In this document: piece after piece, positions 19,755 to 26,966 of the stretch
Layout of the letters: each line of letters starts with the position of its first letter
Position numbering within the stretch: the stretch's first letter is position 1
NCBI RefSeq assembly: GCF_003790525.1
Contig: NZ_CP033635.1
Source: Escherichia coli
GTDB lineage: Bacteria > Pseudomonadota > Gammaproteobacteria > Enterobacterales > Enterobacteriaceae
DNA: 64,000 nt
Reading direction: 5' to 3' (one strand)
The notes under the pieces: model-generated
What the model was told of the DNA's origin: nothing
Databases searched by the model: none
What the model saw: the letters and a program-made list of their open reading frames with translations, nothing else
Made by a program: the position numbers and the translations under genes

Positions 19755-20339
19755 ATGTCTAAAAAATTAGGTTTTGCCCTGTCTGGTCTTATGCTGGCAA
19801 TGGTTGCAGGTAATGCTTCTGCTGCACTGGACGGTGGCCAATTAAATATCAGTGGTCTGGTAGTTGATAACACCTGTGAAACCCGTGTTGATGGTGGCAA
19901 CAAAGATGGCCTGGTGCTTCTGCAAACTGCAACTGTTGCTGAAATCAGTGCTGGCGTACTGAATGACACCGTAGGTGCTAAAGCTAAACCTTTCAGCATC
20001 ACCGTTGACTGCAGCAATGCAAACCCGAATCCTGGTAGCACCGCAAAAATGACCTTCGGTTCCGTGTTCTTTGGCAACAGCAAAGGGACTCTGAACAACG
20101 ATATGTCTATTAACACGCCTTCTGACGGCGTAAATATTGCCCTGCACAATATTGATGGTTCCACTATCAAACAGGTTCAAATTAACAACCCAGGCGATAT
20201 TTACACAAAAACGCTGGACGCTACGACTAAATCTGCAACCTATGATTTTAAAGCATCCTATGTCCGTGCTGAAGCAAGCCAGGCACCAACTGCTGGTTAT
20301 GTTAAAACCAACACTGCATATACCATTACTTACCAGTAA
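19755..20339 (+). CDS. yadN: Fimbrial major subunit-like protein YadN (chaperone-usher pilin)
   Basis: 194-aa ORF with signal peptide [23 protein letters not shown] and pilin-like C-terminus ...AYTITYQ. Confidence 0.85.
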
Positions 20340-20371
20340 TCCTTCGTTAGATTCATAAACTGAATATCTAT

Positions 20372-20406
20372 GGGAGTAACTTTCTTAATAGTGGAATGTT
20401 ACTCCC
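20372..20406 (+). terminator. Stem-loop after yadN (possible attenuator)
   Basis: gggagtaac / gttactccc 9-bp stem, 17-nt loop, followed by tattttaatt. Confidence 0.5.
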
Positions 20407-20436
20407 TATTTTAATTAACTCTGTCGGGAATGGTTT

Positions 20437-21177
20437 ATGTTTTTAAACGCTAAACATACTGCAGCTGTATGCTTCGCCACTTGTATGAGCTTAAGCGCAT
20501 CGGCAATAGCAGATATCGTAATTTCAGGAACTCGCGTAATTTATAAAAGTAATGAAAAAAGCGTTAATGTTCGGCTGGAAAATAAGGGGAATAATCCGTT
20601 ACTCGTTCAGAGCTGGCTGGATACTGGCGACGATAGTGCTGAACCAGGGAGTATTACTGTCCCATTTACCGCCACCCCTCCTGTTTCGCGAATTGATGCC
20701 AAACGTGGTCAAACTATTAAATTGATGTACACGGCTTCCTCACCGCTGCCAAAAGACCGAGAAAGTGTTTTCTGGTTTAACGTACTCGAGGTTCCACCCA
20801 AACCTGACGCAGATAAAGTCGCCAACCAGAGTCTTCTGCAATTGGCATTCCGTACGCGTATCAAATTATTTTATCGCCCGGAAGGTTTAAACGGACTGCC
20901 ATCAGATGCACCCGCAGCACTGAAATGGTCATGGGCAACCTCTGCTGGAAAAACTGCATTGCGCGTCGCAAATCCGACACCGTATCACGTCTCATTCAGT
21001 AGTGGTGATTTAGTCGCCAATGGCAAAACCTACCCCCTGGATGTAAAAATGGTAGCCCCGCTGAGTGAAGAAACCTTCGATATAAAAGGCATGAGTGGTA
21101 AAGCAAGTTCTGCCAAAGTGCATTTCTTCGCCATAAATGACTTTGGTGGTGCAATTGAAGGCAATGCCAGCCTGTAA
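20437..21177 (+). CDS. yadV: Periplasmic fimbrial chaperone (PapD-like)
   Basis: 246-aa ORF with signal peptide and pilus chaperone fold motifs (RVIY, LVQSWLD). Confidence 0.85.
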   Translation: MFLNAKHTAAVCFATCMSLSASAIADIVISGTRVIYKSNEKSVNVRLENKGNNPLLVQSWLDTGDDSAEPGSITVPFTATPPVSRIDAKRGQTIKLMYTASSPLPKDRESVFWFNVLEVPPKPDADKVANQSLLQLAFRTRIKLFYRPEGLNGLPSDAPAALKWSWATSAGKTALRVANPTPYHVSFSSGDLVANGKTYPLDVKMVAPLSEETFDIKGMSGKASSAKVHFFAINDFGGAIEGNASL

Positions 21178-21211
21178 CTAAATCAGGAATAAACGCAGCA
21201 GGAAGCACAAC

Positions 21212-24398: not shown

Positions 24399-24412
24399 CA
24401 GGGATGATAATA

Positions 24413-25018
24413 ATGAAATCTAAAACATTATGTTATGGACTGCCCGCTGGTGTTTTTTTTGCGGCATCCCTATTCACCAGCCAATTGTTTGCAGCTACCG
24501 ATAGCGTTAAGCTGAATGTTAAAGCAACCGTAGAGACGGGAACCTGTACCGCCAGCCTGGTGGATGACAATGATCAGCCTATTTCTGTTATTGCATTTGG
24601 GGATGCTTACATTCCTGAAATTGATGCCAAAACAAAAATTAAAATATTTAAGTTACAGTTTAAGGATTGTGCTGGTATTCCTAATAAAAAAGCACTCGTA
24701 AAATTAACTAAACGCGCAACTTGTGAAGGAGCAGCCAACGATGGGCCTGGTTTTGCAAACGGCTCCGCCGCTGCTGATAAAGCAAATGCTGTTGCGGTTG
24801 AAGTATGGAATACCACGACACCTGGTACAGACGGCAAGACTCAATTTAGCTGCGTAACACCAGTCGCTCAGGAAGTGAATATCTCCACTGCAACAGGAAC
24901 TACGTCAGTATATCATCCTATGAGTGCACGCCTGGTGGTAGAGAAAAATAAAAGCAAAACCGACATCACTGCCGGTCCGTTTTCCGCACCTGCAACATTT
25001 TCTATCACCTATAACTAA
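24413..25018 (+). CDS. yadL: Fimbrial minor subunit-like protein YadL
   Basis: Signal peptide; C-terminus ATFSITYN; position in operon. Confidence 0.8.
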   Translation: MKSKTLCYGLPAGVFFAASLFTSQLFAATDSVKLNVKATVETGTCTASLVDDNDQPISVIAFGDAYIPEIDAKTKIKIFKLQFKDCAGIPNKKALVKLTKRATCEGAANDGPGFANGSAAADKANAVAVEVWNTTTPGTDGKTQFSCVTPVAQEVNISTATGTTSVYHPMSARLVVEKNKSKTDITAGPFSAPATFSITYN

Positions 25019-25044
25019 CAGGCCATTAAAGTCAGGGACCGATT

Positions 25045-25641
25045 ATGCTTTCCTCTCAACTAAAAATTAAGATAAAAACAAGTCTGTTCCTGGCATTATT
25101 GTTTGCCACATCCAGTCCTGTATATGCAGGGCTGGATGTGGATATGGTTGCCAATATCAAGAACAGTACATGTAAAAGTGGCCTCAGTAACCTTGGTAAT
25201 ATCGACCTTGGTGTGGTTGGTGTGGATTATTTTTCTGGTAACGTCGCACCTGAAGATGATTATCCGGGTGGGAGAGAGTTCACTATCACTGTGACTGACT
25301 GCGCCATCCAGGGTTCTGGAAATGTGTTAAATCAGTTACATATTAACTTTAAACCGCTTAATGGCGTGATGGCGACAGGCTCTCAGCAAATTTTTGCAAA
25401 TGAAAATGTCGCCGGCGCTCAAAACGTAGGTGTAGTAATATTTTCCACTCAGGACCCGGCTAATATATTTAATGTTCTTACCCCAGCGGGCAGTTCTCGT
25501 TCAATTTATCCGGTGATGACTGCTGATTTAAACAATTCATCCTGGAAATTCTATACACGGATGCAAAAAATCAACCCTGTATTAAATGTCATGCCCGGCC
25601 AAATCATAAGCCATGTATTAATTGATATTTACTACGAGTAA
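25045..25641 (+). CDS. yadK: Fimbrial minor subunit-like protein YadK
   Basis: Signal peptide; 198 aa; position in operon. Confidence 0.8.
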
Positions 25642-25694
25642 CATACCAAAAACAAATTACTGCGACTATTACAGCAGTGGATGGTGGAGTGAAA

Positions 25695-26966
25695 ATGAAG
25701 ACATTCTTCAGATATTTTCTTTTTTTAATTCTGTGCTTGAGTTGTTATACCGCGAGTGCTGGCACTGATGATTTCGTAGGATATGTTGTTGGGAATAACT
25801 ACGGCGTTGGTCCGTCAGATCAAAAATGGAGAGAAACCGGGCCAAATGGAGATGTGACAGTCGTGTTCAGGTATGGTACCAGTACAAATAATTTAGTATT
25901 TTATAAACCAACACAACTGGGTCCAACAGGGGTGAAATTACATTGGAGTCAGTTAGATACTGCTTCTGGCGGAGGCTTTCTTTATTGTAACAGAAGCAAT
26001 AACACCAGTGGCGGGGCAATGCGTATCGAAAATGCAATGGTTGACTCTGGAAAAAGATATGGTAACCATAAACTATTCAATACATCTGTTCCCGGTTTGT
26101 ATTATACAATATTAATTTCAAATATGTGGTCAGCTTACGGTACTGTAACTAACGTTAGTTCACCAGGAATATATATTGGTGATTCTGCAGAACAATATTT
26201 TTCATGGTACAATCCAAGCGAAAGCATATTATACCAAAGTTGTAACAATGCCAACACATCCAGCAAATATTGGGCTGTAGGCGGTATTTATCAAAATCTT
26301 ACCATCGAATTTTATACAGATACCAACTTTGATCCAACAGTAACTCAACAAGTTTCATTATCGCGCTCATCAAACTATTTATATTCATTTAAAGCTTATG
26401 GTGCTGGTATCGGCATTAACGAACACAGCTATTTTCTTCGAGTTGATTTTGACCTACTAAATATTAAATTAAGTAATCCCACTTGTTTTACAGCTATGTT
26501 AAGTGGAACATCTGTTACTGGTTCTACGGTAAAAATGGGCGAGTATAGTGAAGCACAAATAAGAAACGGTGCCACACCGGTTCCTTTTGATATTTCACTT
26601 CAAAACTGCGTTCGTGTGACTAATATCGAGACAAAATTAGTTTCAACAAAGGTTGGTACTGAAAACAGGCAACTCCTTGGTAACACTCTCACAGGAAATG
26701 GCGCAGCAAAAGGCGTTGGGGTATTGATTGAAGGATTAGCAAACAGTAAAAGTGCCCTCATGATACTGAAACCTAATGATTCAACTTCTGTTTATAAAGA
26801 TAATACGGGCCAGACGCAGAATAACGATTCAGATGCGATTTACCCGGAAGATGACGGTATAACGTATCCACTTCATTTCCAGGCTACATTAAAACAAGAC
26901 GGGAATATTGCTATTGAACCCGGCGAATTTAAAGCCACCAGCACTTTTCAGGTTACCTACCCCTGA
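25695..26966 (+). CDS. yadC: Fimbrial tip adhesin-like protein YadC
   Basis: About 423-aa ORF with signal peptide [22 protein letters not shown] and C-terminal pilin domain ...TFQVTYP; last gene of the operon. Confidence 0.8.

Follow-up and report, generated by a model that had tools for sequence, protein, structure and literature searches.

Gene content and identity of the yad locus

Between folK and panB on an Escherichia coli chromosome lies a chaperone-usher fimbrial cluster, which raises the question of whether it is a complete yad operon and how far it departs from the operon of K-12. The window analyzed (the whole stretch of DNA, 64,000 nucleotides) is the sequence of E. coli SMS-3-5 (phylogroup F, ST354) except for one private SNP. 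Seven intact and co-oriented ORFs on the + strand occupy positions 19755–26966, matching exactly the span noted earlier, with folK (18905–19384) on one side and panB (27078–27872) on the other. The features of the locus are as follows.

19385..19754, + strand: folK-yadN intergenic regulatory region; AT-rich, about 37% GC; 95% identical to K-12 over 376 columns
19755..20339, + strand: yadN, major fimbrial subunit, 194 aa; Pfam Fimbrial 46.6 bits; RefSeq name yadN
20372..20416, + strand: stem-loop with U-rich tail, putative attenuator or partial intrinsic terminator; from folding and conserved pairing
20437..21177, + strand: yadV (ecpD), periplasmic chaperone, 246 aa; PapD_N 150.6 bits, PapD_C 67.1 bits; NF007398 445 bits against 285 bits
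21212..23812, + strand: htrE, outer-membrane usher, 866 aa; GTG start; NF007337 1639 bits against 830 bits
23832..24398, + strand: yadM, minor pilin, 188 aa; Pfam Fimbrial 69.5 bits
24413..25018, + strand: yadL, minor pilin, 201 aa; Pfam Fimbrial 29.8 bits; NF011797 372 bits against 206 bits
25045..25641, + strand: yadK, minor pilin, 198 aa; NF011794 297 bits against 132 bits; Pfam Fimbrial 22.2 bits, cutoff 25.6
25695..26966, + strand: yadC, predicted two-domain tip adhesin, 423 aa; NF007267 889 bits against 391 bits
26973..27003, + strand: GC-rich hairpin directly after the yadC stop; end of the operon and right edge of the divergent block

The gene identities, the intactness and the order yadN-yadV-htrE-yadM-yadL-yadK-yadC given in the preliminary description are borne out by the ORFs, by Pfam and NCBIfam matches, by comparison with K-12 and by the RefSeq annotation of the matching SMS-3-5 region, which agrees with the seven-gene reading. 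The chaperone, usher, YadL, YadK and YadC exceed the equivalog cutoffs of NCBIfam (NF007398, NF007337, NF011797, NF011794, and NF007267/NF007268 respectively), while NCBIfam has no model dedicated to YadN or YadM, for which the best matches are StaA and StaD, below cutoff. Position and gene order are also those of K-12 and of five other E. coli loci, with which the locus is colinear at the folK-panB site. It is thus very probable that 19755–26966 is the yad operon of the chromosome, which encodes a core-associated fimbrial system of the gamma chaperone-usher type, here in the form of a rare, deeply divergent and mosaic allele in an SMS-3-5-like strain.

Each of the seven genes is preceded by a Shine-Dalgarno-like motif, and each product has an N-terminal signal peptide-like segment ending in an AxA-type site, in keeping with the signal peptides claimed earlier (judged by eye). 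The chaperone YadV is PapD-like and retains Arg8 and the Lys112 equivalent, its mature form beginning DIVISGTR (R8) with the lysine of IKLFYRP present; it is 81.3% identical to its K-12 counterpart at the amino acid level. HtrE possesses full-length N-terminal (PapC_N, 143.6 bits), pore (Usher, 517.6 bits, positions 1–549 of 549) and C-terminal (PapC_C, 67.2 bits) domains. Its identity of 84% to K-12 HtrE, and of 84–85% to every other allele class compared (K-12, W, BCE049, MS20659 and GN03507), lies near the threshold of at least 80% identity over at least 80% of the length used to define Yad (PMC13245861). The GTG start of htrE at 21212 aligns with the K-12 start and is preceded by AGGAAG; RefSeq places the start at ATC 21224. 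For yadM, the ATG at 23832 was used (RefSeq, ATA 23829).

The Pfam Fimbrial domain was detected on YadN, YadM, YadL, YadC and, slightly under the cutoff, YadK. The pilins carry a cysteine pair (about positions 38–45/86) and a penultimate tyrosine, the subunit C-termini being TYQ, IYE, TYN, YYE, and TYP. YadN, whose best NCBIfam match is the Salmonella StaA model, is 91.8% identical to K-12 YadN. The minor subunits YadM, YadL and YadK are 64, 70, and 68% identical to those of K-12, and YadM is 60–64% identical to all other allele classes with the exception of that of strain XJ34 (87%).

The YadC adhesin

YadC appears to consist of a lectin domain (about residues 23–258) followed by a pilin domain (about residues 259–423), with the Pfam Fimbrial domain confined to residues 275–422. 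Searching the PDB with the YadC sequence gave zero matches, leaving fold comparison as the only informative approach. The AlphaFold2 model (pLDDT 86, pTM 0.73) shows two beta domains, and the top PDB matches to it by Foldseek were FimH, LpfD, CupB6, PapG, and FocH. On this modeling, YadC is predicted to be a two-domain tip adhesin.

Earlier, a YadC of 423 aa had been set against one of 412 aa in K-12 and a variant allele proposed. Both lengths hold when the starts are aligned, ATG 25695 (MKTFFRY...) corresponding to the K-12 start (MKTIFRY...). The length difference could be an artefact of start-codon choice, as RefSeq begins yadC six codons upstream at GTG 25677 (429 aa) and other genomes annotate the same gene at 421–447 aa. 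With the starts aligned, however, the gap resolves into indels inside the lectin domain, where identity to K-12 is 57.5%; this alignment refutes the artefact, to which we attach a negligible probability. Neither YadC, at about 63–65% identity, nor YadN is identical to the K-12 protein when aligned. The proposal of a variant YadC allele therefore stands but was understated: everything between the yadN 3′ end and the yadC stop is divergent. The B1-type protein of strain W is considerably nearer to the present YadC (86%).

In every allele comparison with an estimable dS, both domains of YadC have a dN/dS well under 1, so gene-wide positive selection on YadC was rejected on these comparisons; saturation of dS gave no ratio for the lectin domain against K-12, GN03507 and XJ34, or for the pilin domain against XJ34.

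Divergence from K-12

From YadV to YadC, the proteins are 64–84% identical to those of K-12, compared with 96–100% for the flanking proteins. At the DNA level, the block from the yadN 3′ end to the yadC stop is 50–80% identical to K-12, and its boundaries, seen in 200-nt windows, are sharp, lying at about 20250–20300 (yadN 3′ end) and 26966–27000; from about 26983 identity is back at 85–97%. Within the block, pS against K-12 is 0.61–0.76 (saturated) and dN/dS is 0.05–0.15, while dS in the flanks is 0.15–0.36. Since synonymous sites are saturated and dN/dS is low, the block is read from these sequence comparisons as old functional alleles under purifying selection, not as decaying genes.

A cryptic remnant that is drifting toward pseudogenes, its divergence arising from relaxed constraint, would be in line with the silence of Yad in K-12 under laboratory conditions (PMC3559732, PMC13245861), with IS insertions in the usher or elsewhere in some carriers of the allele (H47, H85) and with an internal stop in yadK of the sister allele XJ34. 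Such decay is nevertheless very improbable here, given that none of the seven ORFs is interrupted or, judged by family profiles, truncated, that functional motifs are retained, that dN/dS is low both against K-12 and, for intact genes, against XJ34 (0.05–0.22), and that the allele is conserved at 99% identity or above in 160 genomes from varied hosts.

Regulatory region and conserved hairpins

The folK-yadN region is far more conserved relative to K-12 (95%) than the genes downstream of it. It contains an 18-nt inverted repeat at 19542–19582 (94% complementary, 5-nt spacer). A promoter-like TTAATA-16-TATATT at 19662–19689 is not above chance, the promoter scan of the region giving 23 sites against 20.2 expected. 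A possible fimS-like invertible element (20-nt inverted repeat, 80%, 19387–19406/19683–19702) was rejected: the arms lack conservation in K-12, there is no recombinase gene, and the sequence is rich in AT.

Between yadN and yadV, a hairpin is formed by GGGAGUAAC...GUUACUCCC and followed by UAUUUUAAUU, with a folding energy of -18.4 kcal/mol (z = -4.71; none of 200 shuffled sequences was as stable). It is found at the same position in all seven alleles compared, and its stem is kept by two-sided changes, as in K-12 with GGGAAUAAU/AUUAUUCCC. This hairpin may act as an attenuator or partial intrinsic terminator. The hairpin after yadC (-23.0 kcal/mol, z = -7.74) likewise has a counterpart at the corresponding position in every allele, with stem sequences that differ yet pair; as no U-tract follows it, a role as terminator or 3′ stabilizer is proposed rather than assigned. 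Both conserved hairpins were missed by the promoter/terminator scan because of its T-run rule. An Rfam search found no known RNA family inside the operon.

Allele frequency and mosaic structure

Among 5,426 complete E. coli genomes, the allele is present at 99% identity or above in 160, with none at 95–99% and 44 at 90–95%; further yadC classes lie at about 84, 74, 73, and 70% nucleotide identity to it. The suspicion that differences among the 160 carriers cluster in yadC was not borne out in the one carrier compared, MRY15-117: its YadC is identical, and what differs is concentrated in 5′ yadN and in the terminal hairpin.

Followed along the locus, the nearest relative passes from K-12/W to XJ34, then to W, GN03507 and finally the B2 type. 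The regulatory region and 5′ yadN are K-12/B1-like, the stretch from the yadN 3′ end to yadK forms a separate, rare and deep lineage, yadC is nearest to the B1 type, and the yadC 3′ end and panB side are like other types. For YadV to YadK, types A, B1 and B2 are about equidistant; for YadC, B1 is the closest. This pattern is consistent with allelic lineages of long standing that homologous recombination has reshuffled, probably giving the present allele a different antigenic surface and receptor specificity.

The block could instead have come in recently from another species of Escherichia or a cryptic clade, with recombination inside yadN and just past yadC bringing about a xenologous replacement. 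Synonymous divergence is saturated between E. coli-like flanks, GC content is low (35–47%), and YadC is about as distant from that of K-12 (about 63–65%) as from E. fergusonii YadC (64–65%) and cryptic-clade proteins (53–63%). However, other E. coli alleles have an equally low GC content, several E. coli allele types are combined along the locus, Yad/Sta is reported as ancestral at the folK-panB site (PMC3559732), and no donor outside E. coli was found, no other species being named among the nearest relatives of YadC (86%, 77%, 76%...) and YadM (97%, 87%, 84%, 83%). A contig search with HtrE for yad loci outside E. coli returned just three close loci, on an E. coli contig, a “Proteobacteria” MAG and a mislabelled “Blautia” contig, with no other Escherichia species. 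We consider such an import unlikely.

Returning to reshuffled E. coli lineages, we tentatively put forward a more specific possibility, itself less likely than not: the phylogroup F-type yad may be a third deep Yad lineage in which a tip fibrillum of its own (YadM/L/K 60–70% identical to every other type) is combined with a shuffled adhesin. Balancing or niche-specific selection might have kept it for a time comparable to the age of the splits between Escherichia species, and it might have been exchanged as modules (promoter/5′ yadN, assembly-tip, lectin, and pilin tail), and its receptor might be unlike that of K-12 or B2 Yad.

Proposed assembly, regulation and relevance

All seven products would be exported by the Sec pathway, with YadV expected to cap the pilins in the periplasm by donor-strand complementation. 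HtrE would then polymerize the subunits at the outer membrane by donor-strand exchange, YadC entering first, YadK/L/M next as tip or adaptor and YadN last as the rod. Transcription is expected to begin upstream of yadN, where H-NS would normally silence the AT-rich DNA, and the conserved hairpin after yadN would probably raise output of the major subunit relative to that of the assembly genes.

Repression of yad by H-NS has been published for K-12, CFT073 and EC958 (PMC13245861), which agrees with the preliminary remark that the locus is cryptic in K-12 and that its expression should be tested in an hns background. The experiments in ExPEC used B2 strains, and the folK-yadN region of B2-type loci, like that of GN03507, is 50–72% identical to the present one. 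Bearing on silencing here are the AT-richness of the region and its 95% identity to K-12. Expression, surface assembly or binding experiments on Yad were done in other strains (PMC13245861, PMC6921372), and binding of xylose and annexin A2 has been published (PMC13245861). For the present strain, H-NS silencing, the order of subunits, attenuation by the yadN-yadV hairpin and any shift in receptor specificity are extrapolated from relatives.

Allelic variation of Yad falls chiefly in the minor subunits and in the lectin domain of YadC (PMC13245861). This variation, silencing by H-NS and the receptors are already known (PMC13245861, PMC3559732), and the present allele is real but ordinary. Yad fimbriae aid colonization of the bladder and bloodstream and persistence in the environment, and targeting YadC to block adhesion has been proposed. 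If Yad were typed or targeted by K-12 or B2 sequence, roughly 3–4% of genomes would be missed; in these the tip subunits are 60–70% identical and the adhesin is different, and an HtrE threshold of 80% identity barely captures genomes with the present allele. Beyond these points on typing and threshold, the published pattern is restated and no new question is raised.

Comparison with known systems

Type 1 fimbriae (FimA/C/D/F/G/H) have the assembly pathway in common with Yad, and the YadC model matches FimH over both domains, its pilin domain also matching FimA. Identity is just 10–25%, the YadC lectin domain, of about 235 aa, is longer than that of FimH (about 158 aa) and, unlike type 1 fimbriae, the present locus has no invertible promoter switch or recombinase. 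Salmonella Sta (staABCDEFG) is the reported homolog of the core-associated Yad at the same chromosomal position (PMC3559732); identities to Salmonella proteins are 40% for YadC-like and 43–49% for YadM-like sequences, with all Sta model scores under cutoff.

Within E. coli, the XJ34 type (44 genomes, 90–95% nucleotide identity) is the sole close relative found of the module from the yadN 3′ end to yadK (87–97% nucleotide identity), but it has its own unrelated yadC (54% amino acid identity in the lectin domain) and an internal stop in its yadK. The B1 type (E. coli W, SE11), found in about 1,477 complete genomes, provides the YadC nearest to the present one beyond the allele's own class (86% amino acid, 84% nucleotide identity); it differs in the terminal hairpin and over the final ~100 codons of yadC. 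In strain W, YadV to YadK are K-12-like (HtrE 97% to K-12) and 63–84% identical to the present allele. With K-12 Yad (yadN-ecpD/yadV-htrE-yadMLKC, b0141–b0135), the locus has in common its gene order, its folK-panB site, a promoter region 95% identical and its domain architectures; it is set apart by a YadC 11 aa longer, a lectin domain 57.5% identical and saturated synonymous sites.

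Organization of the yad locus

Seven ORFs, all on the plus strand, occupy 19755-26966 between folK and panB (Table), in agreement with the complete yad chaperone-usher operon of the preliminary description. Window positions 16500-30100 are the reverse complement of E. coli SMS-3-5 (NC_010498.1, 156942-170542) with one base differing (megablast). SMS-3-5 is an environmental strain of O19:H34, phylogroup F, ST354 (PMC11537424), and its RefSeq annotation likewise has all seven, named yadN, chaperone, usher, fimbrial protein, yadL, fimbrial-like protein and fimbrial-like adhesin.

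Table. Genes of the yad interval, with amino acid identity of the products to K-12 derivative C600
18905-19384, folK, upstream flank
from 19755, plus, yadN, 91.8%
20437-21177, plus, yadV, 81.3%
21212-23812, plus, htrE, 84.1%
23832-24398, plus, yadM, 63.6%
24413-25018, plus, yadL, 70.0%
25045-25641, plus, yadK, 68.2%
25695-26966, plus, yadC, 64.7%
27078-27872, panB, downstream flank

The gene identities first proposed hold by Pfam, NCBIfam and RefSeq. YadN, YadM, YadL and YadC match the Pfam Fimbrial domain, with YadK slightly below cutoff (22.2 against 25.6 bits), the chaperone possesses PapD_N and PapD_C, and the usher PapC_N, Usher and PapC_C, each at full length. The chaperone and usher, as well as YadL, YadK and YadC, score above the cutoffs of NCBIfam equivalog models. 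For YadN and YadM there is no dedicated model; they match Salmonella StaA and StaD below cutoff, in agreement with the published correspondence of Yad and Sta (PMC3559732). All seven genes have a Shine-Dalgarno-like motif and all seven products a signal-peptide-like N-terminal segment (by visual inspection); the mature chaperone retains Arg8 and the IKLFYRP lysine, and the pilins the cysteine pair and penultimate tyrosine. An AlphaFold2 model of YadC (30-sequence alignment; pLDDT 86, pTM 0.73) has two beta-rich domains, its best PDB matches being the two-domain tip adhesins FimH, LpfD, CupB6, PapG and FocH, with the C-terminal domain also matching FimA-type pilins.

The YadC start chosen earlier (ATG 25695, 423 aa) aligns with that of K-12 and is preceded by GGTGGAG; RefSeq starts at GTG 25677, six residues longer. 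For SMS-3-5, RefSeq (PGAP) has non-canonical starts for the usher (ATC 21224) and yadM (ATA 23829). GTG 21212, which aligns with the HtrE start of K-12, and ATG 23832 look more plausible, as they better fit the K-12 alignment and Shine-Dalgarno spacing. For pcnB, RefSeq has an ATT start (window 17511) in both SMS-3-5 and K-12; a mechanical ORF list begins it upstream, at TTG 17490.

Position 23750 is A in the window (HtrE Thr847) and G (Ala) in RefSeq SMS-3-5, MRY15-117 (another carrier of this operon allele) and XJ34. The surrounding 121 nt have no 100% match among 5,426 complete E. coli genomes (best 99.2%); the A is either a SNP private to this sequence or a minor difference between source and reference.

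Divergence from K-12

YadN and YadC are clearly not identical to their K-12 counterparts, and the suggestion of a variant allele is borne out, for six of the seven genes and not for the adhesin alone. Flanking proteins are 96-100% identical to those of C600. In 200-nt windows, identity falls from ~90% to ~70% at 20250-20300, within 3′ yadN, runs at 49-81% up to and including yadC, and recovers to 85-97% from ~26983. By the Nei-Gojobori method, yadV to yadC have a saturated pS of 0.61-0.76, dS of 1.3 to undefined and dN/dS of 0.05-0.15, and flank dS is 0.15-0.36. The saturated pS and low dN/dS indicate that the genes of the block are not decaying but are old alleles kept by purifying selection.

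Patches of 87-92% nucleotide identity occur in gluQRS (16800-17300) and pcnB (18100-18300), flanking genes being otherwise 96-100%, and dS is 0.30-0.36 for panB and panC. Divergence seems elevated around yad, which fits a recombination-prone or long-polymorphic site nearby.

Mosaic structure and distribution

When the folK-panC interval of the window was aligned with those of strains W, BCE049, MS20659, GN03507 and XJ34, the nearest relative shifted along it.

Table. Nearest relative along the folK-panC interval
folK: B2-like loci, 98%
folK-yadN spacer and 5′ yadN: K-12 and W, 89-95% (B2-like and GN03507, 50-72%)
19800-25615: XJ34, 87-97% (others at most 81%)
25616-26800, yadC: W, 77-90% (XJ34, 47-67%)
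last ~100 yadC codons: GN03507, 87-90%
26944 onward: B2-like loci, 99%

YadV, HtrE, YadM, YadL and YadK are about equidistant from the A, B1 and B2-like types at the amino acid level. YadC, by contrast, is 86% identical to that of W, with a dS of ~1.1 and dN/dS of 0.06 in the lectin domain. The pattern points to modular exchange among long-lived allelic lineages.

The block 20300-26966 was found at ≥99% identity in 160 of the 5,426 complete genomes, at 95-99% in none and at 90-95% in 44, the remainder being below 90%. A sensitive search with yadC alone found homologues in 4,296 genomes (160 at ≥95%, 5 at 90-95%, 1,477 at 80-90% and 2,654 at 60-80%); the 80-90% bin is the B1 type (W, SE11, O111), and K-12 yadC is at 69.7%. 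In a large protein collection, YadC relatives form classes at 100, 86, 77, 76, 75, 73, 70, 63 down to 45% identity, labelled E. coli in nearly all cases; relatives from E. fergusonii reach 64-65%, those from cryptic-clade Escherichia 53-63% and those from Salmonella 40%. YadM relatives stand at 97, 87, 84, 83 and 77%, then ≤64%.

Inactivated related copies were also seen: XJ34 yadK (L010 9516-10112) has an internal stop, the CM2 usher an IS3 element and the ECOD1 operon an IS1 element. HtrE fragments 96% and 88% identical to the window usher occur on contigs labelled 'uncultured Blautia sp.' (L005, USPF01000083.1) and 'Proteobacteria bacterium' (L003, JAEWKH010000045.1); these probably reflect contaminating E. 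coli DNA or mis-binned contigs in metagenome-assembled genomes.

Putative regulatory elements and neighbouring features

The 370-bp folK-yadN spacer (19385-19754) is 95% identical to that of K-12. At least two strongly different versions of it occur: those of SMS-3-5, K-12 and W are mutually 89-95% alike, and those of the B2-like loci and GN03507 (L007, L008, L009) share only 50-72% identity with them. Published work shows H-NS repression for both kinds.

19542-19582, 18-nt inverted repeat in the folK-yadN spacer
20372-20416, hairpin with U-rich tail between yadN and yadV (-18.4 kcal/mol, z = -4.7)
26973-27003, GC-rich hairpin 3′ of the yadC stop (-23 kcal/mol, z = -7.7)

Both hairpins occupy the same positions in all alleles compared, with stems that differ yet are still complementary. 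The first is a putative attenuator that, like those of other fimbrial operons, would enrich the message for the major subunit, and the second presumably marks the operon 3′ end. A promoter-like -10 hexamer (19684-19690) reads TATATT in the window and CTATTT-like in K-12 and MRY15-117, a difference that might alter basal promoter strength.

Outside the operon, ~400 bp between panC and rpnC (28780-29100) are missing in K-12, W and the B2-like loci and present in GN03507. The minus-strand ORF 28817-29032 encodes a 71-aa 'hypothetical protein' repeating the RpnC C-terminal tail (TLAQWFEEKG...LSKGMSREDVAE...L.LAE.DKLI.) and looks like what is left of the 3′ end of another rpn copy; the adjoining rpnC (29101-30021, 306 aa) carries a QEVRQEV repeat tract. 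The sole Rfam match in the 64-kb window, the tp2 sRNA (53606-53719, plus, 103 bits), is unrelated to the yad operon.

Predicted function and comparison with known Yad fimbriae

By homology, the products would be exported by Sec, with YadV capping the subunits as chaperone and the HtrE usher running donor-strand exchange; YadC would sit at the tip, YadK, YadL and YadM would be tip or adaptor subunits and YadN would form the rod. The operon DNA is AT-rich (35-47% GC against 52-56% in the flanks). In published Yad systems, H-NS represses expression (K-12, CFT073 and EC958), serum induces it, and YadC binds xylose-containing glycans and annexin A2 (PMC13245861; PMC6921372); the present allele may behave likewise.

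Wurpel et al. (PMC3559732), whose genome set includes SMS-3-5, placed Yad among the core-associated fimbriae and described it as ancestral together with Salmonella Sta. A 2026 PLoS Pathogens survey of 1,310 genomes found that Yad clusters by phylogroup, with recombination, and that the lectin domain is less conserved (PMC13245861). The present results fit this published variation: the observation is confirmed, its interpretation is correct, and the phenomenon is already known. What is added here is local detail only, namely the boundaries, the synonymous-site saturation, the map of modules and the pair of conserved hairpins.
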